A stretch of 64,000 nt of DNA from an uncultured virus (IMG/VR IMGVR_UViG_3300025470_000023) (lineage: Duplodnaviria; Heunggongvirae; Uroviricota; Caudoviricetes), in IMG/VR virus record IMGVR_UViG_3300025470_000023; one strand, written 5' to 3'. The notes beneath the pieces were generated by a model. That model had not been told where the DNA came from and searched no databases. It saw nothing but the letters and a program-made list of their open reading frames with translations. The position numbers and the translations under genes were made by a program. Shown piece by piece: positions 820-64,000 of the stretch (its first letter is position 1; every line of letters starts with the position of its first letter).

Positions 820-1238
820 GGTGCTCCTAATATGTAAAAGTCATCAATCACATTCCTCAACTTCATCCCTGTCCACAGCCTCCACTCGTCCTTGGTCGAG
901 CCATCGAGAGCCACTTCGAGTCCTTCGAGAATACGATCCCTGTCCTGTGCGCGATAGCCCTGCTCTATGAGATACGTCACCTCCTCGGTGATAATCTGAA
1001 TGTCCTCGTCCCTGAAGGGACGCCCCTTGAATTTATTCTTGTCCACCAATTCTTCCTCCGGTGCTGACCACAACTTGCCTGTGCGTATGCCTGAGATCAG
1101 GCCAGACGAGAGCCCATAAACCGTAGCGATTTCCTTACCCGAATGCCCACAGCGAAGCAGGTGTCGAATGATCTGCACTGCCTCCATCGTCAGCTTGGAC
1201 TGCCCGTTGTTCTCGCCGGGGTTTATGGACTTACTCAT
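816..1238 (-). CDS. HTH DNA-binding protein (N-terminus like the C-terminal HTH of HNH endonucleases)
   Basis: GENNGQSKLTMEAVQIIR...IATVYGLSSGLISGIRTGKLW; GGAGGAG RBS. Confidence 0.55.
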   Translation of the reverse strand: MSKSINPGENNGQSKLTMEAVQIIRHLLRCGHSGKEIATVYGLSSGLISGIRTGKLWSAPEEELVDKNKFKGRPFRDEDIQIITEEVTYLIEQGYRAQDRDRILEGLEVALDGSTKDEWRLWTGMKLRNVIDDFYILGAP

Positions 1239-1534
1239 CACTCCTCCCATGTAACCTGCACTACCTTACATTTCTCCGGCGCATGACACGCCCACCCTGC
1301 CGCATCGTCCTGATAATCAAAGAGCCTAGACCTAGACTCGTCCGGGTACACCACCATCCATGCGTGTTTCTTCGCCGGCTTAGGCTCGAGCCTCTCGATC
1401 AGGGCTTTCATCCCGTGGTAATCCGTAAGATCCCCTCCATGTTCGATCTCATAGGTATATCCCTGCTCTGCGGTAAAGCGCAGGGCGGTCAGCGCAAGGT
1501 ATGCTTCCACAGCGTTCAATTCATAGGTCTTCAT
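1238..1534 (-). CDS. hypothetical protein
   Basis: 98-aa ORF tightly packed in the minus-strand operon. Confidence 0.55.
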   Translation of the reverse strand: MKTYELNAVEAYLALTALRFTAEQGYTYEIEHGGDLTDYHGMKALIERLEPKPAKKHAWMVVYPDESRSRLFDYQDDAAGWACHAPEKCKVVQVTWEE

Positions 1535-1535
1535 C

Positions 1536-1754
1536 TCACTTCCCCTTGTATTGGTATTCCAAACACATTGCGCCTAACCCGGCGGGGCGTGACAGCGTGC
1601 ACTCCCATTTACTATCGAGGGTCACAGAGGGCGGAGCGGTTACGCACAGCAAAAGACCTACGCCACCGCTGAACATCAGCGCCCACAGCGGCCACGTTTC
1701 ACGAACAAACTCACCAAACAAAGCAATCTTCTTCATCGTTTTCTCCATGCACAT
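1536..1754 (-). CDS. hypothetical membrane protein
   Basis: 72-aa ORF with a hydrophobic segment. Confidence 0.45.
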   Translation of the reverse strand: MCMEKTMKKIALFGEFVRETWPLWALMFSGGVGLLLCVTAPPSVTLDSKWECTLSRPAGLGAMCLEYQYKGK

Positions 1755-14339: not shown

Positions 14340-17216
14340 ATGGCTATCCCCAATATCGACAAGGCTATGCTTCCTCAGTCTCCGTTTCTTATGGAAGATG
14401 ACGATGCGCCGATTGAAATTGATATTGGAGATCCTAACGAGCCGGTAGAGGTAGAAGCGGACATAGAGCTCGACAAGCAGCCTGCATTTGATTCCAATCT
14501 GGCCGAGTTCATCGACGAAAGTCACCTTGCTTCCCTTGCCTCCGATCTCATGGAGGACTTTGACAACGACAAGATGTCGAGAAAAGAGTGGGAAAGGACT
14601 TATGTCGACGGGCTGGACCTTCTCGGACTAAAAATCGAGGAGCGCAGCGAGCCGTGGAGCGGTGCCTGCGGAGTATTCCATCCCATCCTCTCTGAAGCGG
14701 TTATTCGTTTTCAAGCTGAAATGATCGCGGAGACCTTCCCGGCGCAAGGGCCGGTGAGGGCGAAAATCGTGGGTAAGGACGACCGGGCGACGCAGGAAGC
14801 AGCCAAGCGGGTAGTGGAGGATATGAATCACCACCTGACGGACAAGATGGTGGAGTTTCGCCCCGAGCATGAAAAGATGCTGTGGGGGCTGGCGCTCTCG
14901 GGTGCTGGGTTCAAGAAGGTGTATTACGACCCGACAATGGACCGCCCGACTTCGATGTACGTCCCGGCAGAAGACCTGATCATCCCTTACGGTGCCTCGG
15001 ATCTGCGGTCGGCACCACGCATTACGCATGTGATGCGGAAAACCAAGAATGAAATCAAGAAGCTCCAATACACGGGGTTCTACCGGGATATTGACCTCGG
15101 AGAGCCGACCAAGCTTATTGACGAGATTCAGCGCCGCAAGGATGACGCTGAAGGGTACGCACAGCTCGATGACGATCGGTATCAGCTCCTTGAAATCAGC
15201 ATAGACCTCGACCTGCCCGGCTTTGAAGATACGGACGAAGAGGACGGTGAAGAGACAGGGATTGCACTGCCCTACATAGTGACCATCGACCGGGGAACGG
15301 AAGAAGTTCTCGCCATTCGGCGTAACTGGGACGAGCATGATCCGCTCAAGGAAAAGAAACAGCACTTCGTACAGTACACGTACATTCCGGGGTTTGGTGC
15401 CTACGGATACGGGCTGATTCACCTGCTGGGTGGGTCCGCGAAAAGCGCGACTTCGATTACTCGCCAGCTTGTGGATGCTGGCACACTGTCCAACCTTCCG
15501 GGCGGACTCAAGTCAAGGGGGCTCCGAATCAAGGGTGATGACACTCCCATCATGCCCGGCGAATGGAGAGATGTGGACGTTCCTTCCTCCAACATCAAGG
15601 ACAATATCCTCCCCCTCCCCTACAAGGAACCGAGCGCAACGCTGTTCCAGCTTCTGCAAAACGTAGTCGATGAAGGGCGCAAGCTGGCGGCAGTCAGCGA
15701 TGTGAAGTTCGGTGAAGTCAATGGGGAAGCTCCGGTAGGCACCACGCTGGCGATTCTCGAGCGTGAGCTCAAGGTGATGAGTGCCGTTCAGGCGCGCGTC
15801 CATGCGTCCATGGCGCAGGAGTTCAAACTGATCGCGGGGCTCATCCGCGACTTCACCGCGCCGACCTATGACTACATGCCTGACTTCGGTGCCAAACCCA
15901 CCGCGAAGAAGGAAGATTACGATCAGGTCGACATCATTCCGGTCAGTGATCCTAATGCCTCCACCATGGCGCAGCGGATCATTCAGTATCAGGCTGCGAT
16001 TCAGCTTGCTCAGCAGTCTCCGCAAATCTATAACCTGCCGGTTCTTCACCGTCAGATGCTTGAAGTTATGGGTATCAAGGACGCGGATAAGATCGTTACG
16101 GTACCGGAAGACGACGAGAAGCCGACCGACCCAGTCACTGAGAACATGGAGATTCTCAAGCAAAAGCCCTGCAAGGCGTTCATCGAGCAGGACCACGAGT
16201 CGCATATCACCATCCACATGAGCATGATCAACGACCCGAAGGTCGCCGCGATCATGGGGCAAGATCCGAACGCTAACGCCATCAAGGCGGCGCTTATGGC
16301 CCATGTGCAGGAGCACGTAGGGTTCCGCTACCGTCAGGAGCTTCAGCAGCAGTTGGGTGTCAGCCTGCCGCCGCCGGATACACAGCTCAAACCGGAACTC
16401 GCTGCGCAGCTCGCGCAGCTCTCGGCACAGGCAGCACAGCAGCTTGTTCAGGCCAATCAGGCGCAGGCGCAGCAACAGCAGAATCAGCAGGCCGCGCAGG
16501 ACCCCGTGGTTCAGATGCAGCAGAAGGAACTGCAGCTTAAAGAGCAAGAGATCAACGACAAGAAGTTCCTCGAACTCGAGAAACTGAAGACGCAGAAAGA
16601 AATTGCGATGATCAACAACGAGGCCAAGCTGCTCCTTCAGCATGAGGACGCGCAGGTCGAAGGGTTGTTCAAGGGCATGGACATGGCCATCCAGCAACAG
16701 AACGCAACACAAATGGCTCCGCCGCCGGGTGGACCCGGCCCGCAAACGCCTCCGCCGCCCGGCCCTCAAGGTCCGCAAGGAGGTCCACCTGCCCCACCAC
16801 CGCCCGGTATGGCTGATGGCGGAAGCACCACAGACAAGATCAATCAATACGCACGGAAGGGCCAGTACGCGGTGGCTGATGCGCTAGGTATGGGTGATGC
16901 GACAAGGCACTCTACGGAAATGGCCGACCAGTATTACCCCGGTGAAGAGCACAATCTTCGCGGAGACGCATTGCGTCACCTGCTCTGGCAGGGAGAACTA
17001 CAGCAGCAGTACGGAGATATTCCGGCGTCAATGGCTGGTTGGGCGCATGAGAAGCTTAGTTCTGACAGCCCTGCGGAAGAAGAAATGGATACGTTCAACA
17101 ACGAGTTGGGGCGGCGTCTCGGATCAGAGACCGCCAACAAGGAAGAGCTGCTGGCACGAGCACGCGCCGCAGTGGATAAAGGCGAAGCACACACCATAGG
17201 GAAACCTAAAAAATGA
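14340..17216 (+). CDS. portal protein with an extra C-terminal domain
   Basis: Follows terminase; P22-like portal features (GFKKVYYD, Q-rich barrel), then a Pro-rich linker and about 135 extra aa. Confidence 0.9.
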   Translation: MAIPNIDKAMLPQSPFLMEDDDAPIEIDIGDPNEPVEVEADIELDKQPAFDSNLAEFIDESHLASLASDLMEDFDNDKMSRKEWERTYVDGLDLLGLKIEERSEPWSGACGVFHPILSEAVIRFQAEMIAETFPAQGPVRAKIVGKDDRATQEAAKRVVEDMNHHLTDKMVEFRPEHEKMLWGLALSGAGFKKVYYDPTMDRPTSMYVPAEDLIIPYGASDLRSAPRITHVMRKTKNEIKKLQYTGFYRDIDLGEPTKLIDEIQRRKDDAEGYAQLDDDRYQLLEISIDLDLPGFEDTDEEDGEETGIALPYIVTIDRGTEEVLAIRRNWDEHDPLKEKKQHFVQYTYIPGFGAYGYGLIHLLGGSAKSATSITRQLVDAGTLSNLPGGLKSRGLRIKGDDTPIMPGEWRDVDVPSSNIKDNILPLPYKEPSATLFQLLQNVVDEGRKLAAVSDVKFGEVNGEAPVGTTLAILERELKVMSAVQARVHASMAQEFKLIAGLIRDFTAPTYDYMPDFGAKPTAKKEDYDQVDIIPVSDPNASTMAQRIIQYQAAIQLAQQSPQIYNLPVLHRQMLEVMGIKDADKIVTVPEDDEKPTDPVTENMEILKQKPCKAFIEQDHESHITIHMSMINDPKVAAIMGQDPNANAIKAALMAHVQEHVGFRYRQELQQQLGVSLPPPDTQLKPELAAQLAQLSAQAAQQLVQANQAQAQQQQNQQAAQDPVVQMQQKELQLKEQEINDKKFLELEKLKTQKEIAMINNEAKLLLQHEDAQVEGLFKGMDMAIQQQNATQMAPPPGGPGPQTPPPPGPQGPQGGPPAPPPPGMADGGSTTDKINQYARKGQYAVADALGMGDATRHSTEMADQYYPGEEHNLRGDALRHLLWQGELQQQYGDIPASMAGWAHEKLSSDSPAEEEMDTFNNELGRRLGSETANKEELLARARAAVDKGEAHTIGKPKK

Positions 17217-46525: not shown

Positions 46526-49500
46526 ATGGCTGAAGAATACGGATTGGCTAACCTTCTCGCTGGTCAATCAATACCCGCTGATGACTCTGGCTTAGGGCAA
46601 ATATATGGCGGGGGAGACAGCTACACTGCTCAACCTCAAGCGCCTTCTTCAGCTACCGCGATTCCTCCGGGGTATAGGCCCGTACCATTACCTAATGGTG
46701 GGTTTGTCTTTGCCTATAAGGACCATACCGACGAGCAAGCTATTGCAGCTTACCAAGCGGCGCAGGGGGCGCAGCATCCCCAGCATAAGCCGATCCCTCA
46801 TGGGCACGCGGCTGCACGCGAGCCGGTAGCGCCTGAATTCAAGCAAGCGCAGCGTGAGCCGCGCTACGAAGCGTTTGATCCTATCACTGAAGTGCTTAAC
46901 GCTGAGAACCAGCTTGATCGCGCTTCGATCGAGGAAATCCCCCGCGCCTATAAATATGCGCTGACTCCAGCGCAGGCGGCTCAGGTTAAACGCCAAGAGG
47001 AAAAAGCAGCACTCGCCGCGCAACCTCGTGATCCTGAAAAGCAGGGGTTCATTCCCGCTGTAGGAGCTGGCTTTGCTCGTGAGATCGGGAGTGTAGGACG
47101 CTTCGCTTCAGAAAGTGCTCAACCGTTTGCTCCGGGTGTAGCGCAGACCATCAAGGAAGTCACACAACCTGCGGAAGCTAAGGCCAAGGAACTTCATCAG
47201 CCTATCTCTGACATTGAGATTGCCGAAGCAAAACAGAAAGGATTCGTACCTTACGCTGGCGCTCAGCTTACGCGTGCCGGAGATATTCTAGGTGGGTTTG
47301 CTGGTGAGTGGGGTGTTCCCGGTATTGTCAGTAGGGCAGGTGCTCCGGGTAGGGCTATCAGTGGTGGGCTGACGTTTGCACAGCTTTATGGCGATCTGTC
47401 TCGTCGTGCCGAAGAATCCGGTGTGGAACTCTCATTGCCAGAGAAGTACGCAGGGGCCGCAATCAGCACCGCTATTTTTCAGTTGGCCCCCAACTTCGTA
47501 ACCAAGGGCTTGCCCCTCAATGTGCTGGCTCCGTCTGCTAAAGCCATTGTCGATATCTATGAAAAGGAAGGTGCAGAAGCTGCGCAGAAAGCTGTAGGGT
47601 CTTTGGCTGGCAATATCGTCAAGAGCTATGGCTCAGGTGTTGTAGGCGGAACTGCCGCTATGGCCGGTACGGAAGCGGTAACTCGTCACATGCTGGGTCA
47701 ACCGCAGATTACACCTGAAGAAACTCTAGAGATGGCTAAGGACGCTGCGATTATCAGTGCTCCTATGAGTATTCTCCACGGGCGCGCGGCAACGGCGGAA
47801 GCACAGAAAGGCTATAGAGAAGGCGCGGCGCGAGCATATAGAGAAGATCAGAGACTGCAGCAACAGGTTGACGCTATCAACCAAGAGAACGCGGAGCGTA
47901 CATGGCCCGAAATGCGTACGGAAGGGCAAAGAGCTGACCAAACGCAGGGTACTGAGCATATTGAGACTCCCGGCGTAGCCGAGCCTGCACCGCCGACTGG
48001 CGAGATCAACCTGCTTCAACCTGTTGACTGGCACCCTACGGGTGATGGGTTCCCTAATACGGTCGAGGGGTTGAAGGGTTTCATCGCGCACCATAAAGAC
48101 AAGCTACAGAATGAGGTGGCTCGCCGTAACCCAGAGGTTGCTGCACCCATTGAAGGTGCGCTTAAAGAAGCGAACAAAAGACTTACGGCGCTTCGCCGTA
48201 CCGCACAGAAAGGTGAGGCTCCGACTCCTCCGGGTATTCCTCCGTCAGCAGAGTTGTTGCCTTGGCCGGGCGAAGCGCCGCCGGAAGCCGTTACACCCGA
48301 AGCTCCAGTCGTTACACCCGAAGCTCCGCCTCCGGTTGAGGCTGTTACACCCGAAGCTCCCGCCGCACCTTGGCCTGTAGAAGCTCTCGGGCTGAAACCG
48401 AATGCCGCGCTGACTAAGCGCCTCGCCAAGCTGGATATGAATAACCCAGAGCACATCGAAGCTATTTCCGATGAGCTAAACAAGACACGCGTGCAGATCG
48501 AGCCTGAGAAGCTGGCTGCACTGTCAAATCATTTTGATGCTATTATAAAGCCTAGTAAAACAACAGAGCAGAAGGCTTATGGCGCGCAAGGCGAACAGAA
48601 CATCATTCCAAAAAGGCCACCAACTGTGGACCTCGGAACGCAAAGAAAAACTACAGAACTCTTTAGCCCAGAAGCGCAAAGAGGGATGGAGCTCCTTACC
48701 CAAAGGATACAAGATGTCGCCCGAAGTTATACAGAAGAGGGGCGAAACCCGGCGCAAGAATTGCTTAGGCAAACGATACCTACACAAAAGTTGCAACAAG
48801 ACATATTGGGTCATTTGGACACCCTCGGGGAAACGGTACGAGCATCGGGTGATTATGGAGCAGTTGCTAGGGAGATCATTACTGAAATCGGAGCACGTTC
48901 ACCACAAGGACGGGGACGGCTTGAACAACTCACCCGAAAACTTGGAGCTTCTGAGCAGCAGCGCCCACGCGAAAGAGCACCATCACTTACCTCTAGGGAA
49001 ATGGGCCAAGAACCACGAGGTGTGCTTGAAATGCCACAGCAAGGAGCGAAAGCACCTAGCGAAAGGCTTATGCACGAGGTGTTACCAACAAAACAAGCAG
49101 GAGAAATAGATGCCCTCAACAAGCAAATCTCAAGCACGCCTGATGGCGGCAGCGGCGCACAACCCGTCTTTCGCGAAGAAGGTGGGGATCAAGCAGTCAG
49201 TGGCCAAGGAGTGGAACCAAGCGGACAAGGGGAGCAAGCTGCTGAAGTCGAAGCCCCGAAAGAAGTAGAGGCCATCCAGCAAGAAGCGCGTTCGCTCCAA
49301 CCGGGAGATATTATCGCCAACGATATGGGTGATAGAGTTGAGATCGTGAAATTGGGTGGTACGCTTAAAGACGGCACACAGTTGTATGAATGGCGTGACC
49401 CTGATGACCCCAATTTTGGTCCTACGAAGATGGCTACTTCTTCTCCTGAAGGTAGTGAAGGCGTGCTCTCTATACATACACTGCTGTCCCCATACCAATA

Positions 49501-52500
49501 TCTTACGCCTGAAGGCGAACGTAAGAGCGCTCCCGGCGCTACTATAACTAGAGCACAAGAAGCACCTAAAACGGAAGAAGAGCTCACAGCGGTAGAACCG
49601 CAAAACCCTCGCGAAGCGTGGGAAGCCATGCGTAGTGAAGGCGATCCTGACCATAAGGCCCTACCGCGCGAAGCGCAGATTGCATGGAAAAGAGCCTTTG
49701 ATGACGGCGCTGCAGACAAGGCTTTCTTCGATCAGCTAAAGACCGCGATCACTCCAGAAGCAGATAGGCAGGCTGGCGAGACAGAAGAAGCCGTTGCCCC
49801 TTCTAAAAAAGACTACGATGGTGATGAGTTCCTCTATAGCCGCGGTGAGAAACCAAAAGAAGCAACTAGCCGGGAGATGATCCATGAGACGATCAAGAAC
49901 ATCACTGGTGATAAGCCTACCGCTTGGAGCGTAAAAATCCATGACACGGTAGAAGATGCACAGAATCATTTGAATGAGGCTGTTTATGAAAAGCTGGATA
50001 GGGATTACCCGGCTATTATGCGGGCTATTGACCATTTTGAACGCACGGGAGAGCTAGACCCTAATGATCCTTACTTGCCTCGTGGTGGTGTTGTATCTCG
50101 TGAGCGGCATATAGATATCCTGCGCGGAATAGCCAGTGATATACGCAAGAATGCTGAAGCTAAAGGGCTTACGGGGTTAAAACTTGAGCCCGATGCTAGA
50201 GGTTTCGTGCTGGGGAACAAAGCGCATTTCGTTGTAGAAAACATCCCTAAAGGGCGGGAACTTGGGGTGATGCTGCATGAGGTGGGTGATCACCTCGGTA
50301 TGGAAAAACTGTTGGGTACAGAACAGCGCTCTAGACTCGCAGCTAAAGTTGCCGATTGGGCCAAGACGCATAAAGGTCTTGAAGGTGACGTTGCTCGCGC
50401 TGCTATTGAACGTTCTCGTGGTGATGAATCAGAACACATCGCTTACTTTGTAGAAGAAGCGGTTAACCACGGCGTTGACCCCACTGCATGGAAGCCGAAC
50501 TCTGGGTTTAGTGTCTGGTTCCGTCAGCTCTTGGCTGCATTCAAAGCTGGCTTACGCAAACTCGGTATCAAGAATGTTGATCGTCTGTCTGCTCAAGATA
50601 TCGTAGATATGGCCTATGGTGCGGCGCACCTTGAGTTGCGCAGTCGTTGGCATGGTGCCCCTAAAGACTTCAGAAAATTCCAGCTCAAGTATCGCGGCAC
50701 TGGGGAAGGCGGCTTAGAGCCGGGTGATAGAAACGCTGAACACTTTACCGACATGATTGGTTGGGGGCATTACATGTCCGGTCGGCGTGGTATCGCTGAA
50801 GAATATCGTGATCGCCTGTCTGCGCAAGCTAAGCGTGGTACTGGAGCATTAGACCTTAAAGACTATAAAAAAGATTTTGATGTAGGCACTGACAAAGCGA
50901 CCGCTTTTAGCGATGCCTATGAGATTTTACATGAAACTCGGGGGGATTTTATTAAGGCTAGGCGGCGCATAGGTTTGCACGCGCAAGAATTCACTGATGC
51001 CCTAAATGGAGTGTGGCCCACACCTAAAAATCTTCCAGATCTTATAAAACAGGCAGAGAAAGAACGTGACCTCGCATTACAGTTTATAGACACGTTTGAA
51101 AAGCACGGAGCTGAGTATATTCCGGGCGAGCAACCAGAACCCACACTCTATAAACTCGGCATCAACGCCTTCGACCATGAGCTTATCGACTGGGAAAAAC
51201 CCCTGTCTGAGCAAAGCCCTGACGTACAGCGCGTAGCTAATCGCGTAAAGAAGAAGCTGGAAAAAGAAGGAGTGCTTGACGACGTTGTCGATACGCTTAA
51301 TTCAAATTGGGAAGACATCTCAGGTAGAGACTTCTATCGGTATGTGATGCGTAAAGCACGGGATACCGATGCTATTCCAGAGTTGTATGACTTGAGCGCC
51401 GTTAACGCAGAGAAGGCGGCATCTGAGTATTTGGACTCTCAAGGGATCAAAGGCATCAAGTACCCGACCCAAGGAGGGCAGGGTCCGGGCCACAACTACG
51501 TCATCTTTAGCGACAAGAATGTTCATATCGCGGGTAAGAATGTGCCGCGCACTGAAGCTGAAGGTATTCGCTACTCGCGTGCTCCTGAAGGGGAAGAAGA
51601 ACGTCCCCCGCTAACCAAGATTGATCGCAGCTCTACCCTAAAGACGATCGCTAAGACTTTGAAGCGCGCGGCGTTGGCGGTTAGTGATCCGAGTGCTATG
51701 TCTGAGGAGTATGCCAAGTTCCGGCGGCGGGTGATCGCTGAGTCTGCAGGTCTGACCAAAGCTCTCGAGAATGAGCCTACCTACGATCCTGATACCGGCA
51801 TTCGCGTGGACTATCTGCGGAACCAATACGACAGTGCCTATCAGTTATCTCTGGAAGGTCTGTTCAATGGTGTGCCTGTGCTTGAGCCTAAGACGGGTGT
51901 TGTGCGTATTCAGCCGACGACTCGTACCAATCTCGATCGCATCATGGCAGATGCAGCTAAGCTACCGCTCAAAGTCTCCTATGACGGGCAGAAAAAGGAA
52001 CCGCTCGAAGTCATGGCGGATATCTTCCGTATCAAGATGGGTGAACAGGAACTCAAAGAATACGAAGAAGCCAAGGTTAAGCTAAGAGCAATCGAACAGT
52101 TGCCAGAAGCTACGCGCAATCAGACCGACACCAAGGCGGAAATGGATAGGCTTAAAGAGCTTATCACTAATCAAGAAAGAGGCATTGGTCGTGAGCGTAA
52201 TGTCACCCGCGAAGACATTCGCTGGGCTAATGACGAGATTCAACACGTACCGGGAGTGCAGGATATTCTGGATCGTTGGGGTGAGACTAACCAAGAGCTG
52301 CTACGTTTTGCGCGTGACACCAACTGGATCACTCCTGAGAAGTATGAAGAATGGTCGGAGCGGCCCTCATACATCCCCATGTATAAGCCGATGGAAGATA
52401 TCCTAGCAGAGCGCGACGAGACACCTGCATTCCCCGGTGGTGGTCCTAAGACTGTCGGTAAGCTGTTCGGTAAGACAGGTGCGGCTAGTGCATTCCCTGT

Positions 52501-54463
52501 GAATGTTTTTGAGAGCTTGTCTCAGCACTATACGTCGATGATCACCAACTCCATGATGAACAACGTCAAGTATAGAGCCTTCCAGCAGCTTGAACGGGTA
52601 GGGTTGGCAGAGCGCGTTGCACCCACATACAAGGGTAAGGATGCTGTAAAGGCGCGCGCCGCTGGTAAAGACTTCCTCTATAAAGTGAAGGACGAAGAGG
52701 CATTCCGTTCGCTGACGATGGCGAATATGTACAGCAACCCGTTCCTTGATCTAGTGGCGATCCCGGCTAATGTGGTTCGCCGTACGGCGCTGTTCCTGAA
52801 CCCTGCTTACTACTACAGGACGATGATCCATGATCCTCTCGCCGCTACGCTGACTACGACAGCTAAAGGCGCGATCGGCCCTGTGACTCCTGCAGATGCC
52901 CTGTATCAGATAGGCAAGCGGGCTGCGGGTTTTGATAAGTCGGCTAAGGATCTGCAGTACTACGGAATCAGCGGGCTCGCTAACATGGACGCCAACATGC
53001 ACCGTTTCGCGCGGGCTCTTGGCGACTCACCGAAATATAACAAGTGGCTCCAGTACATTGATAAGGTCCACTCTTCTTTCGATGACGCTACGCGTACCAT
53101 CGTCTATGAGGCGGCTAAGAAGGAAGCGGCTAAGGATGGCATCACTGATCCGCAGGTGATTAACGATATCGCCGCTGTTAAGGCTCGGGACTTTGCTGAC
53201 TTTGCGGCCAAGGGCTCTAGTCAGCTCGTGCGTATAGCAGGTAAGCAGACTCCGTTCCTTCACGCGCATTTTGTGGGTCTGGATAAAATGCTTCGCTCTG
53301 CTACAGGGCACGGTAAGGACTCCAAGGAAGGTAAGGCTCAGCGTGATCGGTTTGTCGCTGGCGCTACGCTTGCGGCGAGTGCTGTAGTGGCTATTACTCT
53401 CGCTAACATACGTGACAAGCGATACCGGGACCTGCCTATCGGTGAGTGGTCCAAGAACATCATTGCTGGATTTGATGATGAAGGGCGCGCAATCAAGATC
53501 CCTGTACCACAGGAAATTGGCTTCTGGTTCAAGTTTGTTCCTGAGCTCATGACCCGTATGCTGATGGGCGTTAGTGATAAGCCTGAAGCGAGCAAGGCAT
53601 TTCACGGTATGGCGATAGATACATTGCTTCCTCCGGGTCTGGCTGACCCGATCAGTATCGCGGTGCGTGGTTGGTTGCAGATGCAGACGAATACCGAGTT
53701 GCATAGTGGCCTCCCGATTGAAAGCCCGCAGGAACAGTTGCTCCTGCCAGAAGACAGGGACAAGAGAGCGACTATCTTTAGTAAGGCTCTGCGTGATCAA
53801 CTCAAGAAGTATGGGTTGTCGGAAGACTTCTCACCAGATAAGTTCGACAGCTTTATGCGCTCCTATCTCACTACAATCTGGGATAACTCTGCTCTGGCCG
53901 CGACGATGATCCATGATGCCTATACAGGCAAACGCAGTCTGTTTGAACTGCCTTTCAACAAAGACTTCACGGAAGTGTACCCCGGCGCTAAGGCATTCTT
54001 CAGCAATCCGAGAAACATCTCAGCTACGCCGCGCTTCTACGATATGGCCAAGCCGCTCTATGAAACGCTCAAGTCAGTCAATGCGGCGGCACACGGAGAA
54101 ATGGATGACTCCGTAGAACGGTTTGATGAGTTACGCAATGATCCTGTTGTGATGCAACGCTACCGTATGGCGAAAGTGGCGGCTAAGTATCGGTCTAAGA
54201 TTTCAGCTTTGGAAAAGGCGATCGAACAGCTTGATAACAGGCAGGATCTCACTGAGGCGCAAAGGCGCAAACTTTACTGGGACCGCATCAAGGATCGCAA
54301 TGAACTTGCTAGAACTGCTGTAAATGAGCTCTCCAAGGGCCTAATGCAGGACAAGAAGTTCAAGGACGATGTAGAGAAATCTTGGAAGCTCTCTGTGTCT
54401 CCTGAAGACCTCGAACGCGAGATAGGTAAGTTCAAGGAAAATACAGGTGATACGGAAGAATAA
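46526..54463 (+). CDS. giant polyvalent ejection protein (metallopeptidase-like, ART-like and LPD38-like domains)
   Basis: 2645 aa; LHEVGDH; WHG...GTGEG...GWGHY...GIKGIKY...NYVIF; IKIPVPQEIG C-terminal region. Confidence 0.8.
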   Translation: MAEEYGLANLLAGQSIPADDSGLGQIYGGGDSYTAQPQAPSSATAIPPGYRPVPLPNGGFVFAYKDHTDEQAIAAYQAAQGAQHPQHKPIPHGHAAAREPVAPEFKQAQREPRYEAFDPITEVLNAENQLDRASIEEIPRAYKYALTPAQAAQVKRQEEKAALAAQPRDPEKQGFIPAVGAGFAREIGSVGRFASESAQPFAPGVAQTIKEVTQPAEAKAKELHQPISDIEIAEAKQKGFVPYAGAQLTRAGDILGGFAGEWGVPGIVSRAGAPGRAISGGLTFAQLYGDLSRRAEESGVELSLPEKYAGAAISTAIFQLAPNFVTKGLPLNVLAPSAKAIVDIYEKEGAEAAQKAVGSLAGNIVKSYGSGVVGGTAAMAGTEAVTRHMLGQPQITPEETLEMAKDAAIISAPMSILHGRAATAEAQKGYREGAARAYREDQRLQQQVDAINQENAERTWPEMRTEGQRADQTQGTEHIETPGVAEPAPPTGEINLLQPVDWHPTGDGFPNTVEGLKGFIAHHKDKLQNEVARRNPEVAAPIEGALKEANKRLTALRRTAQKGEAPTPPGIPPSAELLPWPGEAPPEAVTPEAPVVTPEAPPPVEAVTPEAPAAPWPVEALGLKPNAALTKRLAKLDMNNPEHIEAISDELNKTRVQIEPEKLAALSNHFDAIIKPSKTTEQKAYGAQGEQNIIPKRPPTVDLGTQRKTTELFSPEAQRGMELLTQRIQDVARSYTEEGRNPAQELLRQTIPTQKLQQDILGHLDTLGETVRASGDYGAVAREIITEIGARSPQGRGRLEQLTRKLGASEQQRPRERAPSLTSREMGQEPRGVLEMPQQGAKAPSERLMHEVLPTKQAGEIDALNKQISSTPDGGSGAQPVFREEGGDQAVSGQGVEPSGQGEQAAEVEAPKEVEAIQQEARSLQPGDIIANDMGDRVEIVKLGGTLKDGTQLYEWRDPDDPNFGPTKMATSSPEGSEGVLSIHTLLSPYQYLTPEGERKSAPGATITRAQEAPKTEEELTAVEPQNPREAWEAMRSEGDPDHKALPREAQIAWKRAFDDGAADKAFFDQLKTAITPEADRQAGETEEAVAPSKKDYDGDEFLYSRGEKPKEATSREMIHETIKNITGDKPTAWSVKIHDTVEDAQNHLNEAVYEKLDRDYPAIMRAIDHFERTGELDPNDPYLPRGGVVSRERHIDILRGIASDIRKNAEAKGLTGLKLEPDARGFVLGNKAHFVVENIPKGRELGVMLHEVGDHLGMEKLLGTEQRSRLAAKVADWAKTHKGLEGDVARAAIERSRGDESEHIAYFVEEAVNHGVDPTAWKPNSGFSVWFRQLLAAFKAGLRKLGIKNVDRLSAQDIVDMAYGAAHLELRSRWHGAPKDFRKFQLKYRGTGEGGLEPGDRNAEHFTDMIGWGHYMSGRRGIAEEYRDRLSAQAKRGTGALDLKDYKKDFDVGTDKATAFSDAYEILHETRGDFIKARRRIGLHAQEFTDALNGVWPTPKNLPDLIKQAEKERDLALQFIDTFEKHGAEYIPGEQPEPTLYKLGINAFDHELIDWEKPLSEQSPDVQRVANRVKKKLEKEGVLDDVVDTLNSNWEDISGRDFYRYVMRKARDTDAIPELYDLSAVNAEKAASEYLDSQGIKGIKYPTQGGQGPGHNYVIFSDKNVHIAGKNVPRTEAEGIRYSRAPEGEEERPPLTKIDRSSTLKTIAKTLKRAALAVSDPSAMSEEYAKFRRRVIAESAGLTKALENEPTYDPDTGIRVDYLRNQYDSAYQLSLEGLFNGVPVLEPKTGVVRIQPTTRTNLDRIMADAAKLPLKVSYDGQKKEPLEVMADIFRIKMGEQELKEYEEAKVKLRAIEQLPEATRNQTDTKAEMDRLKELITNQERGIGRERNVTREDIRWANDEIQHVPGVQDILDRWGETNQELLRFARDTNWITPEKYEEWSERPSYIPMYKPMEDILAERDETPAFPGGGPKTVGKLFGKTGAASAFPVNVFESLSQHYTSMITNSMMNNVKYRAFQQLERVGLAERVAPTYKGKDAVKARAAGKDFLYKVKDEEAFRSLTMANMYSNPFLDLVAIPANVVRRTALFLNPAYYYRTMIHDPLAATLTTTAKGAIGPVTPADALYQIGKRAAGFDKSAKDLQYYGISGLANMDANMHRFARALGDSPKYNKWLQYIDKVHSSFDDATRTIVYEAAKKEAAKDGITDPQVINDIAAVKARDFADFAAKGSSQLVRIAGKQTPFLHAHFVGLDKMLRSATGHGKDSKEGKAQRDRFVAGATLAASAVVAITLANIRDKRYRDLPIGEWSKNIIAGFDDEGRAIKIPVPQEIGFWFKFVPELMTRMLMGVSDKPEASKAFHGMAIDTLLPPGLADPISIAVRGWLQMQTNTELHSGLPIESPQEQLLLPEDRDKRATIFSKALRDQLKKYGLSEDFSPDKFDSFMRSYLTTIWDNSALAATMIHDAYTGKRSLFELPFNKDFTEVYPGAKAFFSNPRNISATPRFYDMAKPLYETLKSVNAAAHGEMDDSVERFDELRNDPVVMQRYRMAKVAAKYRSKISALEKAIEQLDNRQDLTEAQRRKLYWDRIKDRNELARTAVNELSKGLMQDKKFKDDVEKSWKLSVSPEDLEREIGKFKENTGDTEE
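48579..49109 (+). mobile_element. HNH homing endonuclease nested in the +1 frame of the giant gene
   Basis: YEHRVIMEQLLGRSL...HVHHKDGDGLNNSPENLELL plus C-terminal CxxC...GLCxxC. Confidence 0.85.
49110..49268 (+). CDS. 52-aa basic protein nested in the +1 frame of the giant gene
   Basis: MPSTSKSQARLMAAAAHNPSFAKKVGIKQSVAKEWNQADKGSKLLKSKPRKK; AGGAG RBS; ATG directly after the HNH stop. Confidence 0.7.
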   Translation: MPSTSKSQARLMAAAAHNPSFAKKVGIKQSVAKEWNQADKGSKLLKSKPRKK

Positions 54464-59173: not shown

Positions 59174-59201
59174 ATTTTACACACTTATATTACCCTGTCA
59201 A
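59174..59201 (-). promoter_or_regulatory. sigma70-like promoter
   Basis: TTGACA-16-TAAAAT. Confidence 0.5.
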
Positions 59202-61685
59202 CTCCTGTTGATACATATCTAACAAAGTTTCTTGCGCCAGAGTCCTTTCCTCCAAAGCTTTGTAGAGCTGGCGCTCCACGGCTGAGCTAACCAACTTCAC
59301 CACAAGGCACGGGTTTCTCTGCCCCGCTCTATGCACTCGGGCGTTCGCTTGTAGCCAGATTTCTGCGGAGGTCACAGGACCGAACCAGATGATCGTATTG
59401 GCCGCTGTCAAAGTGACACCATGCGCGGCTGACTGAGGCTGAATGATTAGAACGTGCGGGTTGGGCGTAGTCTGGAAGTCATTGAAAATCTCTGCCCTGC
59501 GTTTGGCTGACACCCCGCCGTGTATGGTGGCCGTAGTGATGCCCTGCTTCTCAAGGTACGTCTGTACCATGTCGATTGAATGTCTGAAGTTGCAGAAGAT
59601 CAGAACCTTGTGGCTACTCTCCTGTACGACCTCAAGCATCTCCTCTAACTTATTCTTACAGTCGAACTCGACAACCTCGCCGCTATCCGAATACACCGAC
59701 CCACAGTTGTGGACGATGACGGGACCTTCTTTCCCCGCTACAACAAACCTAGACCGGGGTCCGCAGTTAAGTAGGTCGTAAGTTGCTTCCCTTTGTTTGG
59801 GGACGCTTTCAGTGCCAAATCTATAGGCCAACCCGCCTTCAGGCGTCTTCTCAAGGTGACAGACTTGAGTCCGTATTCCTCTGCTGCTTGTGCTACAGTC
59901 ATTTTTCCATTCGGTGTGTCTATAAGAATGTTCACCCTCGTGTTGCGCCCCTGATCCTTGGGTGTAGCCCACCGGCAATTCTCCGGTGAATACGGGCCGT
60001 TGTTGTCTATCCTGTCTAGCGTAAGCCCGTCCTTGTGCATAGGCCCCATATCCGACCAGAACATCTCGAATGAAGACCGCCAGCGTTCGCACACCACAAT
60101 TCCACGTTCTCCGTAATTTTTGTAGTCCTTGTCTAAAGGATCGTGACAACGCGCTACCATGCTGTGATAGTTTGAATACACTGGCTTTTTGCTCATTTTG
60201 TGTTTCTCGTTGCCGTGGTGGCATCCGCAACTTCTTGGGTGCTTCCTGTGCTTTGCTCTTAGATACTGACTCCTGCGAATTACGCGCCGCCCACAATCGC
60301 ACAGGCAAAGCCACGTCGCGCATTGCACCGAAATTCCGCTCGTCGTTCCAGCTCTCTCTATAACTGTCAGGTACCCGAACTTCTGTCCTATTAAATCTTT
60401 TGCTGGATTTGCCATAAATAATATCCTCCGCTGTCTGCCATCCTGCGGTGGTGAGAACCCTATGGTCCGAAGTCATACGTACACCGTAGCACTCGCGCAC
60501 TTCTTTAAGCCCACGACATGCCAGCCCATCATGTGCTACCCATTCTTCACCATCCCACACTCTATGCGCTGTGGTTACTTCTTGAATCGGTACCCACCCA
60601 ACGTCTGTAAGTACAGGTGTATTATACGCAATACAAGATATTTGTAACAGTTTGTTCATACCCACTGCCGCATTGAACGCTGTGATATCTGCACTGGCAA
60701 CTTGGATCAGCATCTCTTTCTTGAGGAGCTTGTAGTATTTCTCCTGTTGCGCTGTGAGGGGCGTGTCACGCTCAGAGTAAAGAAGCTCTGGTAGATCGAG
60801 GCACTCATCCTTGGTGAACCTGATGGCAGGCTGAAGCACCTCATGGACTACCTGCTGTGCCTCGGGTTTGGGGATGTATTTGAACGCGCTGATCTTCAGC
60901 ATGACTCGATCGCGGAACAACCCTACGAACTGCGGAACACTCGTGGGATTCATCATCTTGGCGAGGCCGTAGGCATCGAGTGGGCTCTGTGCCGCAGGTG
61001 TGCCCGTCAGCATCCACACCCATGTGTCCGGTCCGATCAGGCTATTGATCATCTTCCAACGCTTGGTCGTTGCTGTCTTGATGTAGTTGGCCTCATCCAG
61101 AACAATAAGGTCGAACCCACCCAGAGCCAGCTCGCTACGCACGGACTCCACACCATCGTAGTTGATAATGACGAACTCGGCATTGGAGTCGATCACCTTG
61201 GCTCGCTTGGCTTTCGATCCGTGGGCAATGTCTACCCTACGCTTCATGACCGTCCTGAATAGATCTGCTCTCCATGCTGAGTCCATGATAGACAGAGGGC
61301 AAATGACGAGTACCCTGCGAATGAACCCGAGCTTCATGAGATAGTCAGCCGCCCAGATAACGGACACGGTTTTGCCTAGCCCCTGCTCGTTCCAGCAAAA
61401 TGCTCTACGGTTGAGGGTCAGAAAGGCGGCGGTTTCCTTCTGGTGATCGAAGGGCGTGTATCTCCCCGGCCAATCGTATTGACGCACGATAGGAGCCGGT
61501 GCTTTCTTGAAGCCCAGATTGCGAAGGATCTTTGTGTTAGGCAGGTTCCATTTGACTGCCACCTCGTAGCCGTTGCCATTGGGTAGCGAAACTTCCTTCA
61601 CTACCGCAGACTTCGGAATCACTTCGGTGATCTTCTCTGGATTGCGGGTGCGCACGATGAGTGCGCGGTCCTCTACGATTTCCAT
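59190..61685 (-). CDS. SNF2-family helicase containing an intein
   Basis: QGLGKT, LDEA, LTGTP, HGVTLTAA, QANARVHRAGQ; 310-aa insert between LLQIS and CGSVY. Confidence 0.9.
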   Translation of the reverse strand: MEIVEDRALIVRTRNPEKITEVIPKSAVVKEVSLPNGNGYEVAVKWNLPNTKILRNLGFKKAPAPIVRQYDWPGRYTPFDHQKETAAFLTLNRRAFCWNEQGLGKTVSVIWAADYLMKLGFIRRVLVICPLSIMDSAWRADLFRTVMKRRVDIAHGSKAKRAKVIDSNAEFVIINYDGVESVRSELALGGFDLIVLDEANYIKTATTKRWKMINSLIGPDTWVWMLTGTPAAQSPLDAYGLAKMMNPTSVPQFVGLFRDRVMLKISAFKYIPKPEAQQVVHEVLQPAIRFTKDECLDLPELLYSERDTPLTAQQEKYYKLLKKEMLIQVASADITAFNAAVGMNKLLQISCIAYNTPVLTDVGWVPIQEVTTAHRVWDGEEWVAHDGLACRGLKEVRECYGVRMTSDHRVLTTAGWQTAEDIIYGKSSKRFNRTEVRVPDSYRESWNDERNFGAMRDVALPVRLWAARNSQESVSKSKAQEAPKKLRMPPRQRETQNEQKASVFKLSQHGSALSRSFRQGLQKLRRTWNCGVRTLAVFIRDVLVGYGAYAQGRAYARQDRQQRPVFTGELPVGYTQGSGAQHEGEHSYRHTEWKNDCSTSSRGIRTQVCHLEKTPEGGLAYRFGTESVPKQREATYDLLNCGPRSRFVVAGKEGPVIVHNCGSVYSDSGEVVEFDCKNKLEEMLEVVQESSHKVLIFCNFRHSIDMVQTYLEKQGITTATIHGGVSAKRRAEIFNDFQTTPNPHVLIIQPQSAAHGVTLTAANTIIWFGPVTSAEIWLQANARVHRAGQRNPCLVVKLVSSAVERQLYKALEERTLAQETLLDMYQQELTG
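59706..60635 (-). mobile_element. intein (310 aa)
   Basis: Block A CIAYNTPVLT, block B MTSDHRVLT, block F TYDL, terminal VHN with +1 Cys. Confidence 0.92.
59738..60415 (-). mobile_element. HNH-type homing endonuclease nested in the +1 frame inside the intein
   Basis: DLIGQKFGYLTV, WLCLCDCG, SCGC, YGERGIVVCERW, TLDRIDNNGPYSPENCRWAT; GGAGG RBS 9 nt upstream. Confidence 0.9.
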
Positions 61686-61737
61686 GTGTACCTCTGATAG
61701 CAACCACGTTAAGGCCGTGGCAGGAGCCTATCCAACA

Positions 61738-62241: not shown

Positions 62242-62910
62242 TTAGTCTCCTTGATGAGGGCAACTCGTTACGTTGCACCACTTTCGGCAAAGACCGTTCG
62301 GGCGAGGGTTCCACACATCAGTCTGATAGGCATTTTCCAGAGCGGATAACAGCCCATGCAATTCAGAGAAGATGCTCAACCCATACTCTGCCGAGAAGTC
62401 TTGCTTCCTGTGATCTTTCTTTACTACAAAGAGTAGCATGGTTTTGATCTTTTCTATCTCTGGGTATTTGAGAAACAGGGCAGCGGCCATGAGAGCAAGC
62501 TGGCGAGTGTCGGCGTATCGGCTTTCTCCTGTCTTGTAATCCAGTACCCATGCCCGATTGCCATCGACAATAACCAAATCTGCAATACCTCGAAACCAAA
62601 CTTCAGGGTCGTAGTAATCGCACGTTTCCAACCGCCCATCGACTTTCTTCACTCCCAATTTCATTTCACAGAACTTCTCGCCCGGATAGGCAACGAGCTT
62701 ATCGAGGTAATCTTGTATAAAGCTGAACCTCTGTGGAATGGGAGTGCCGTCTCGAATGTATTCCTCTGCCGCCTTATGCAGTTGCTCGCCGTAGATAGCC
62801 TTCTCTCCTTGCGTGAAGGGAACTTCCTTGGTGACCTTCTCCGCCTGATACTTGCGAGGGCAAGTCTCAAACGTCTTCAGTGCGCTGTACGACCATGCGG
62901 GTTGTTTCAT
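62242..62910 (-). CDS. PD-(D/E)XK exonuclease (Cas4/RecB-like)
   Basis: WSYS...CP, GIADL, DYKTG, QLALMA, LCRKWC...CPH. Confidence 0.85.
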   Translation of the reverse strand: MKQPAWSYSALKTFETCPRKYQAEKVTKEVPFTQGEKAIYGEQLHKAAEEYIRDGTPIPQRFSFIQDYLDKLVAYPGEKFCEMKLGVKKVDGRLETCDYYDPEVWFRGIADLVIVDGNRAWVLDYKTGESRYADTRQLALMAAALFLKYPEIEKIKTMLLFVVKKDHRKQDFSAEYGLSIFSELHGLLSALENAYQTDVWNPRPNGLCRKWCNVTSCPHQGD

Positions 62911-64000
62911 GCTTCCAGTTTCTTCATCTTGAATGACAGGTCTCTACCGTATCCACCCTCGGCATCTAGGGGTAGGCCCTCGGCCCACTTGGGAGGAACG
63001 CGAAGCTCGGTGATGATAAACCGTCTGGCCTCATCAGCCTCGTCCTCGGGCACTACGCAATAGACCGCATCGTGAATGGTAAGTGCCGCCGGGTACTTCT
63101 TGTTGATCCGTACCATCGCTTCACCCATTACGCATCTAGCCAACGCTTGAATTGTATTCTGATAGCACTTCGGCCCGTGAATACGTTCAAGTTTCTTGCG
63201 TACTTTGTAGCGCCACTCGGTGCGCCCGTTCTCTTCCACTTGGTGTAAATCTGGATAGCGTAAGGACAACCCAGACGGCAGTATTATACCATGCTGGCCC
63301 ATCACTTCGAGGGGTAGCACCTCACCAAACTGGAAGATGTAGTGATCGCGTATGTGCTGTAGAACCTTCTCGCCTTCATACCACGATTCTTTTACCTTGG
63401 TGTACTCGGTACGGTAGCGGTTAACCAGAGTTTGTGCGAGGTCTTCTCCAATGTCTTTCCCTGACAGTACCTTGATGGCATTCCTGAGCTTCTTATGTCC
63501 GGTGCCATAGATCAGTGAGAGCTGTGATTGCTTGCCGATGAAGCGTTGATCGTCGTCCACTTCCTCGTAGGCTACGCCGAAAATCGGCGCAATGAAGTCT
63601 CGATAGAGGTCGCGTCCTTCGGCAAGTAACTGCACCTTGTCCATCTGCCCGGCAAAGTAGAGACCCACACGGAGCTCGATGTTCGACAAGTCAGCACCCA
63701 CGATGACGTATCCGTCAGGCGCAACGATCGCCTTCTTCAGCGTGGACCCACGCGGTACGTTCTGTAGGTTAATTTTATCCGTAGCTGACCATCGGCCCGT
63801 CATGGCTCCATAGTATTTCAGCGGTACGGGCAGTGCTCCACCGATCTTCGCCATTTCAATGAACCGTTCGGTGCGCGTCTCCTCAAGCGTAGACTTAACA
63901 CCCACACGCGCGGCGGCGAGTGTCTGAATACGGAGGTCTTCGTGCTCCAACAGGGCCTTCATTCCTTCGTCAGTCTTGGCGAACGCATAGGCTTGCTTGC
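62907..64000 (-). CDS. DNA polymerase family A (5' part beyond window)
   Basis: TGRWS, NLQN, motif A DLSNIELR, motif B R..GK..LSLIYG, motif C TIHD. Confidence 0.9.
   Translation of the reverse strand, partial: KQAYAFAKTDEGMKALLEHEDLRIQTLAAARVGVKSTLEETRTERFIEMAKIGGALPVPLKYYGAMTGRWSATDKINLQNVPRGSTLKKAIVAPDGYVIVGADLSNIELRVGLYFAGQMDKVQLLAEGRDLYRDFIAPIFGVAYEEVDDDQRFIGKQSQLSLIYGTGHKKLRNAIKVLSGKDIGEDLAQTLVNRYRTEYTKVKESWYEGEKVLQHIRDHYIFQFGEVLPLEVMGQHGIILPSGLSLRYPDLHQVEENGRTEWRYKVRKKLERIHGPKCYQNTIQALARCVMGEAMVRINKKYPAALTIHDAVYCVVPEDEADEARRFIITELRVPPKWAEGLPLDAEGGYGRDLSFKMKKLEA

Follow-up and report, generated by a model that had tools for sequence, protein, structure and literature searches.

A two-frame intein in a freshwater phage SNF2 helicase gene, with a probable homing endonuclease encoded as a separate overlapping gene

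Inteins with endonucleases in another reading frame

Several inteins are known whose endonuclease is encoded within the intein in a different reading frame from the splicing domain. Here we describe a further member of this group from an uncultured virus of the Caudoviricetes (IMG/VR record IMGVR_UViG_3300025470_000023), of which a stretch of 64,000 nucleotides, hereafter the window, was analyzed. The element lies on the minus strand in the gene for an SNF2-family helicase, and it is most probably a mobile class-1 intein whose homing endonuclease, of the HNH type, is a separate overlapping gene. An earlier note on this DNA had implied that the layout was new. That implication has to be withdrawn: the same family is annotated as P45/P46 of Hamiltonella phage APSE-1, and out-of-frame intein endonucleases are reported in the paper on brucellaphages and the preprints on actinophages and a cyanobacterial dnaX gene considered below.

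The APSE-1 element belongs to the same intein and HNH families as that of the window. In a tblastn comparison with APSE-1 (AF157835 / NC_000935), residues 5-214 of the window HNH protein matched at 41.1% identity (E 2e-41), and the two elements share the +1 offset, an open filler and C...HN|C junctions. RefSeq names the nested coding sequence P46, an HNH endonuclease, inside the DNA polymerase coding sequence P45; as annotated, P46 is a shortened call of 141 amino acids. The host genes differ, since the APSE-1 intein interrupts a family-A polymerase at YGGKS|C...HN|CENICQ whereas the window intein interrupts an SNF2 helicase. The APSE polymerase intein is mentioned in PMC7313666; no paper setting out the two-frame logic for APSE turned up in the literature searched.

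In the Tb/Pr group of brucellaphages, an out-of-frame HNH in the intein of the large terminase was described in 2015 (PMC4422536); the host gene there is a terminase, and the likeness to the window element drawn here is one of layout. Gosselin, Arsenault and Gogarten reported actinophage inteins with antisense endonucleases or with an endonuclease VII-like one in 'frame 3' (10.1101/2025.01.02.630785). These resemble the window element in that the endonuclease lies within the intein in another frame and the host-frame product is unstructured, and the layout is proposed there to have arisen when a free-standing endonuclease gene invaded a mini-intein. The same-strand case is endonuclease VII-like and in 'frame 3', the others being antisense, whereas the window family has an HNH in +1. 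The authors hold their layout to be rare and possibly transitional; the window family, in contrast, is very numerous, has never been seen in frame and occurs in phages of hosts other than those of actinophages. Phillips, DeSimone and Gogarten described a cyanobacterial dnaX intein with an out-of-frame LAGLIDADG endonuclease, crediting Gorbalenya 1998 (10.64898/2026.09.14.751524). The overlapping open reading frame (ORF), the low ratio of nonsynonymous to synonymous substitution rates (dN/dS) in the endonuclease frame and the raised ratio in the host frame follow the same per-frame logic as here, but the dnaX endonuclease is in a +2 ORF, the gene is cellular and mini-intein alleles co-exist with it.

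Two further systems share part of the design. The ShiLan domain is a hidden out-of-frame HNH in an insertion in a phage methylase (PMC11855218), where the host ORF likewise stays open across the HNH and its product is disordered. No ribosome-binding site was found there and leaderless initiation was proposed (PMC11855218); the insertion has no splicing domain and hence remains part of the protein. In the fractured genes of Dassa et al. 2009, the N- and C-terminal halves of a split intein flank a free-standing endonuclease gene (PMC2677866). There the host gene is split and its products are trans-spliced, whereas the window helicase frame runs continuously through the endonuclease gene. The inteins in the phiCbK paper, which lie in TerL and RNR, were considered and set aside as unrelated. 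No paper on the two-frame design of the window family or on its occurrence in SNF2 helicases came up in our search, outside of which subscription journals and preprint supplements lay. What we add to the known systems is a set of stop-avoidance statistics, a DNA-level census (70 unique loci, none of them in frame), support for a single origin and an estimate of a very large family.

Anatomy of the element and selection on its two frames

The earlier note had described a helicase intein with intact splicing blocks and a non-domain middle, enclosing a complete HNH ORF in the +1 frame, with both frames open. All of its coordinates held when the ORFs and the sequence were re-read, and its observation stands. 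The intein (59706..60635, minus strand; 310 amino acids, CIAYNT...VIVHN, with junctions LLQIS|C...VHN|C) sits between the SNF2-rel_dom and Helicase_C domains of the helicase. It begins with Cys1 (TGT, 60635-60633), ends with Asn310 (AAC, 59708-59706) and is followed by Cys+1. The N-terminal splicing region (60411..60635, minus strand; residues 1-75) holds blocks A and B, the latter with T55-S-D-H58 as its TxxH motif, and the C-terminal region (59706..59795, minus strand; residues 281-310, ...TYDLLNCGPRSRFVV...VIVHN) holds blocks F and G. Residues 76-280 between them (59796..60410, minus strand) form a host-frame filler that would be translated within the precursor. In an alignment of 38 relatives, C1, T55, H58, D287, F297 and N310 were invariant and H309 was nearly so. 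Alignment to intein-less helicases, a check that the note had proposed, yielded a clear outcome. The best phage helicase matches to the window gene come as two adjoining pieces with the insert missing, and the helicases of Rhizobium phage RHph_TM3_14A (KLLQVA-TGWVY) and Caulobacter phage RW (KCHQLA-NGAIY) align straight across the junction; the insertion is therefore precise.

To tell the Hint and HNH frames apart, the note had also proposed a profile search, and this succeeded only in part: Pfam recognized the expected domain in neither frame, while PHROGs matched the +1 frame to HNH families and a profile search against PDB sequences matched the other frame to inteins. Our Hint assignment thus comes from the latter search, an AlphaFold2 (AF2) model and Foldseek, not from Pfam. 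A profile of the 38 intein relatives matched the Neq Pol (7.3e-6) and Mtu RecA (1.1e-5) inteins. In the AF2 model, the pLDDT (predicted local distance difference test) score was 94-97 over residues 1-70 and 93-96 over residues 281-310, and fell below 50 over residues 103-274, within the filler. In Foldseek, the best matches of the model were inteins without exception, with probability 1.00 for Ssp DnaB, Mtu RecA and Npu DnaE; the mini-intein Ssp DnaB 6frg came first (E 9e-4). The modeled splicing halves thus form a confident Hint fold. The intervening middle of ∼200 residues matches no family, is predicted to be disordered and evolves free of amino-acid constraint.

The nested ORF (59738..60415, minus strand) encodes 225 amino acids from an ATG to a TAG. 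Since (61703-60415) mod 3 = 1, it is in the +1 frame relative to the helicase. It covers intein residues 74-299, sitting between blocks B and F, and its last ∼17 codons overlap block F; the corresponding residues have pLDDT below 50 and are predicted to be disordered. Ten PHROG families matched it, the best being phrog_374 (2.8e-60) and phrog_3377 (5.1e-53), both HNH endonucleases. The HNH assignment rests on these matches, as no Pfam HNH model was found at E<=1; the sole Pfam match was a weak C-terminal helix-turn-helix (HTH_psq, 0.0017). A profile of the nested HNH matched only I-HmuI among PDB sequences, and weakly (E 0.44). In an AF2 model built on a 36-relative alignment, pLDDT averaged 86.1 and residues 1-205 were folded. 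The putative endonuclease has an N-terminal beta domain with a Cys cluster and a C-terminal helix-turn-helix. In a wide VIA structural search, the top match was the HNH restriction enzyme PacI (3m7k_A; Z 6.1, short of the level that VIA calls 'clear'; root-mean-square deviation 2.5), aligned over 76 residues to model residues 70-162. This match would fit a ββα-metal nuclease. Y101, Y142, N146 and N158 were invariant in the HNH alignments; R135 was invariant in the 10-sequence alignment and nearly so in the 36-sequence one, and D137 and N138 were conserved in the 10-sequence alignment only. The general base of PacI is a tyrosine (PMC4081073). Because PacI uses Tyr in this role and Y101 and Y142 are invariant in the nested ORF, we predict with moderate confidence that the nested protein is an HNH-type, PacI-like nuclease.

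Both frames are open throughout the overlap. The host frame carries no stop codon over the length of the HNH ORF, compared with 21 in the third frame. When we held the HNH protein fixed and resampled synonymous codons from the codon usage of the window, the host frame was open in 0 of 100,000 trials, with a mean of 12.8 stops. Shuffling synonymous codons within each gene, for nine family members, kept the host frame open in 0 to 19 of 20,000 trials. Host-frame stops were absent from 17/17 nested copies, in which the third frame had 5-22, and the corresponding frame of free-standing HNH relatives had 1 to 45. Because many of these free-standing relatives are AT-rich, better controls are provided by the third-frame count and the resampling.

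Substitution patterns distinguish the two frames. Among ten nested genes, substitutions peaked at HNH third codon positions in 45/45 pairs, and HNH-frame identity exceeded host-frame identity in the same number. Between the window and its relative L003, for instance, there were 19, 14 and 62 substitutions at the first, second and third HNH codon positions, and identity was 0.88 in the HNH frame versus 0.61 in the host frame. For the HNH frame, dN/dS lay at 0.10-0.19 in the six close pairs, against 1.10-2.35 for the host frame. These results, which are those the earlier note had anticipated from a per-frame analysis, support purifying selection on the HNH frame and a host frame kept only free of stops. 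The two-frame layout is real and maintained by selection, and it provides a clean and statistically strong case of overlapping genes in which one frame is selected merely to remain open. A diverged variant of the HNH region (60187-60385) was seen in one freshwater run, X11; its differences fall mostly at period 3, and by arithmetic from the coordinates these are HNH third codon positions.

The same data bear on whether the HNH ORF might be an unexpressed relic, which would make the element in effect a mini-intein with a long linker. We consider this very improbable. The canonical HNH histidine is not evident, as might be expected of a relic, but the low HNH-frame dN/dS, an ORF intact in 70/70 unique nested loci, invariant Cys, Tyr, Asn and Arg columns retained across HNH relatives and the confident fold of the AF2 model all speak for a maintained protein. 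Sequencing or assembly could also, in principle, have disguised an ordinary in-frame HNH intein through two compensating indels. No supporting point was found for such an artefact, to which we assign virtually no probability, and it is already refuted. Contigs from four other runs span 59190-61703 with zero indels, so that the frame-restoring indels that the earlier note had named as a possible undoing of its reading did not appear; one record covers 59190-61025 with a single substitution. Moreover, 70 unique loci and the isolated phages RW and APSE-1 show the same +1 offset, and a truly in-frame HNH would leave the stop-free second frame unexplained.

Putative start site of the nested gene and the proposed cycle

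The nested ATG at 60415 is preceded, across a 9-nt spacer, by a Shine-Dalgarno-like GGAGG (60425..60429, minus strand), the bases of which double as the intein codons Ala-Glu-Asp. A start codon was present at the conserved position in 65/70 unique nested loci (ATG in 42, GTG in 23); of the remaining five, four were missed by the start pattern and one begins further upstream. Of the 65, 62 have a purine-rich motif 4-15 nt upstream of the conserved start. The same bases code for conserved residues of the intein (AED in helicases, EGW or KGW in polymerases), and therefore conservation of the motif alone is no proof of a ribosome-binding role.

In place of internal initiation, a +1 ribosomal frameshift out of the helicase frame could produce the HNH, as a fusion with the N-extein and N-intein. 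The HNH frame is indeed open for 19 codons upstream of the ATG (244 codons from stop to stop versus the 225-codon ORF), initiation within an already translated ORF is inefficient, and the Shine-Dalgarno-like bases are intein codons too. We nevertheless regard a frameshift as improbable. The ATG or GTG falls at the same aligned position in 65/70 relatives, 62 of them with the upstream purine-rich motif, the HNH model folds complete from residue 1, and free-standing relatives begin at the same place. No slippery site turned up either, though no search aimed at one was made. We also considered an internal promoter for the nested ORF and rejected it, as the region contains three sigma-70-like sites against 2.3 expected, which is not above chance. 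One of these sites (60648-60621, minus strand; GTTACA-16-TATAAT, 10/12 matches) is located at the extein/intein junction, ∼205 nt upstream of the nested ATG. RNA structure near the nested start was unremarkable (z -0.68).

The Hint fold, the unconstrained filler and the selected +1 ORF with its conserved start support the two-frame reading put forward in the earlier note. From the anatomy, the two open frames, the frame-specific selection, both folds, the precise insertion and the recurrence, we infer the following cycle. Translation in the helicase frame would yield a precursor in which the two Hint halves (residues 1-75 and 281-310) are bridged by ∼200 unconstrained residues, and protein splicing would excise the entire insert and ligate LLQIS to CGSVY. 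On the same mRNA, ribosomes would initiate at the internal GGAGG-N9-ATG and read the +1 frame to give the 225-aa PacI-like HNH nuclease. This nuclease, which has its own DNA-binding modules, would presumably cut the intein-less helicase alleles of co-infecting phages, and repair of the cut allele would copy the intein in. In this way the nested HNH nuclease probably spreads the intein. Selection preserves the HNH protein sequence while excluding only stops in the helicase frame. The mobile unit of the intein would then be two cooperating genes, not one bifunctional protein.

Several observations weigh against this overlapping-gene interpretation. Pfam returned neither Hint nor any other family for the intein and no HNH for the nested ORF. 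Foldseek of the HNH model against the PDB gave nothing at E<=1e-3, the PacI match is below VIA's 'clear' level, and the motif, LDRIDNN, has no evident canonical general-base His. Conservation of the Shine-Dalgarno-like motif may be a by-product of the intein and not a selected signal, and no RNA run is listed among those containing the window sequence. No contig in the four runs joins across the intein as an intein-less allele of the window phage would, although contigs from four runs cannot prove the absence of such an allele. Lastly, there is no sign of co-conversion: third-position identity in 15-nt bins beside the junction was 0.29-0.42, no higher than farther away.

Recurrence, probable mobility and genomic setting

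A blastn search of phages first turned up the same layout in the Caulobacter phages RW, KcrB, RLK and GB2A, where the DNA polymerase carries it. Their polymerase intein (CIAKFTPVLT...LIVHN|C) is homologous to that of the window and holds a +1 ORF of 213 amino acids; the records annotate only 'DNA polymerase' at the nested locus. The nuclease is missed by gene callers and by protein-level intein surveys, and counts of 'mini' versus 'full' phage inteins, as well as the homing-cycle models built on them, may therefore be biased. With culturable members such as Caulobacter phage RW and APSE in this large family, expression and homing are directly testable.

For a DNA-level census we collected loci from viral contig scans (33 + 80 loci) and a genome contig scan (80), for a total of 192 including RW. 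An HNH relative was present in 190 of them. The HNH was nested in a long ORF in the +1 frame in 91 of these 190 loci and free-standing in 93; five were scored as having a long in-frame ORF and one as nested in +2. The five 'in-frame' calls (L125, L131, L135, L162 and L168) and the '+2' call (L129) proved to be GC-rich or spurious upstream extensions without an intein and were rejected. Deduplication of the nested loci left 71, and 70 after L118, a GC-rich false positive, was dropped; L081 is a low-quality copy containing an N. Both intein junctions could be located in 65/70 unique loci, the other five being pattern misses or truncated contigs. The +1 HNH ORF was intact in all 70, down to ∼40% identity, and was kept in every homologous intein examined, as the earlier note had expected of a conserved gene. 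The sampled host ORFs were SNF2 helicases in 5/5 cases and family-A polymerases in 6/6, and each host gene type has several neighboring insertion sites.

At the protein level, the 38-intein profile gave 4,019 hits at E<=0.001 and 2,925 at E<=1e-10 in a library of 1.84 billion representative proteins, and at least 1,315 protein clusters matched the intein at E<=1e-30. Of the best 150 library proteins, 148 match the entire intein profile, filler included; partial or near-complete matches are P0034 (1-275), P0086 (1-276) and P0096 (best stretch 1-109). This filler similarity, read at the protein level, suggests that nested ORFs lie behind the library proteins. By hidden Markov model boundaries, the full-length copies in these 150 proteins read C..HN|C in 140 cases, C..SN|C in 6 and C..HN|S in 1. 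Ten of the 150 carry two full-length intein copies, and some listed proteins have 3-4 matched stretches.

No in-frame form of the family was found. None of the best 150 intein-bearing proteins contained an in-frame HNH (hmmsearch, E<=10), and none of 75 longer proteins carrying an HNH in frame had the order N-terminal splicing region, HNH, C-terminal splicing region in one frame. Only one of the 75, P0173 (634 aa, from one contig), also matches the intein. In this helicase allele the intein frame gives way part-way to the HNH frame and the protein ends with the HNH stop, which rules it out as a bifunctional intein; either decay of the copy or an assembly indel accounts for it. Another protein, P0192 (610 aa), is an SNF2 helicase whose N-terminus bears an in-frame fusion to a relative of the HNH, and it holds no intein.

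Two other helicases carry, or seem to carry, additional inserts. In L003 (867-1700; same contig as L036 and L004/L037), the helicase has a second intein at the DExx motif (LLIVDE|CFVEG...YLVHN|CNAYKN) that matches Pfam PT-HINT (1.9e-7). This intein holds a +1 nested ORF of its own (994..1698, 234 aa), which matches DUF559 (PF04480, 1.4e-6), a Vsr-like nuclease family; a different endonuclease family therefore uses the two-frame arrangement in the same gene. The helicase ORF of L015 / L016 (963-4253) seems to have a further insert near the N-terminal ATP-binding motif (DPG|CVSADTEY...IFATGN|TGKT).

Comparison of the insert with its flanks hints at mobility. Between the window and L005, identity was 0.89 for both the HNH and the C-terminal splicing block and 0.63 and 0.53 for the exteins; between the window and L052, it was 0.52 for the HNH, 0.63 and 0.74 for the splicing blocks and 0.27 and 0.25 for the exteins. 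In a tree of 130 HNH sequences, the nested rows fell into two supported clades, one of helicases (29 rows) and one of polymerases (39 rows). Holding all 68 nested rows together gave a tree 97 log-likelihood units better than the free quick one (p-AU 0.97), and a single origin is therefore favored, not rejected. These results also bear on the possibility that the HNH is expressed but is a passenger. It would then be a free-standing nuclease that had taken up residence in a mini-intein able to tolerate it and that works for its own benefit or for that of the phage, as by competitor exclusion, with the intein passed on vertically. Close free-standing relatives occur commonly among phages and prophages, such an invasion has been proposed as the origin of the layout (10.1101/2025.01.02.630785), and the flanks carry no co-conversion signal. 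However, the HNH co-varies with the splicing blocks, both together being better conserved than the exteins, and the nested HNHs, one clade in the better tree, nonetheless occupy several insertion sites in two unrelated host genes, which implies that intein and HNH move as a unit. A passenger nuclease is thus unlikely, and we retain the interpretation of a mobile intein with its own overlapping endonuclease gene.

On balance, we lean towards the view that the layout is the ancestral, stable state of one of the largest intein families of phages. It would have arisen through a single capture of a PacI-like HNH by a mini-intein and spread to sites in SNF2 helicases and family-A polymerases, reaching thousands of clusters without ever becoming fused in frame. 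If so, ∼200 codons have been constrained solely against stops, the start signal of the nuclease is written in splicing-domain codons, and protein-level censuses have mis-scored a large share of phage inteins as endonuclease-less.

The helicase precursor ORF of the window (59190..61703, minus strand) has 837 amino acids counted from a TTG; judged by its relatives, the true start may be the ATG at 61685, 18 nt downstream. Pfam places SNF2-rel_dom at residues 105-339 (6e-22) and Helicase_C at residues 685-794 (7.8e-18), and PHROGs assigns the ORF to the DNA helicase family phrog_62 (3.2e-99). The N-extein (60636..61703, minus strand) ends in ...NKLLQIS, and the C-extein (59190..59705, minus strand) begins with CGSVYSDSG... 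and contains the Helicase_C domain and the stop codon; the extein boundaries were aligned with intein-less helicases.

The window is a fragment of a phage genome with a GC content of 52.4%, and its sequence is present in freshwater metagenome runs. On its minus strand is a replication module consisting of a primase/helicase, an exonuclease and a family-A polymerase. The polymerase (62907-63998, minus strand) reads uninterrupted as KCYQN-TIQALARCVMGE. In the polymerase of L104, this motif is interrupted by a member of the helicase-intein family (KCYQN|CLAEGT...IVHN|CIQALARCVMGE), which means that the window phage offers an unoccupied site for a sister intein. The terminase is encoded at 12374-13885 and the portal at 14340-17216. 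A 2645-aa ORF at 46526-54463 on the plus strand has as its sole PHROG match the endolysin-like phrog_873 (9.6e-10, residues 1244-1457), and presumably encodes a virion or tail protein that carries a lytic domain.

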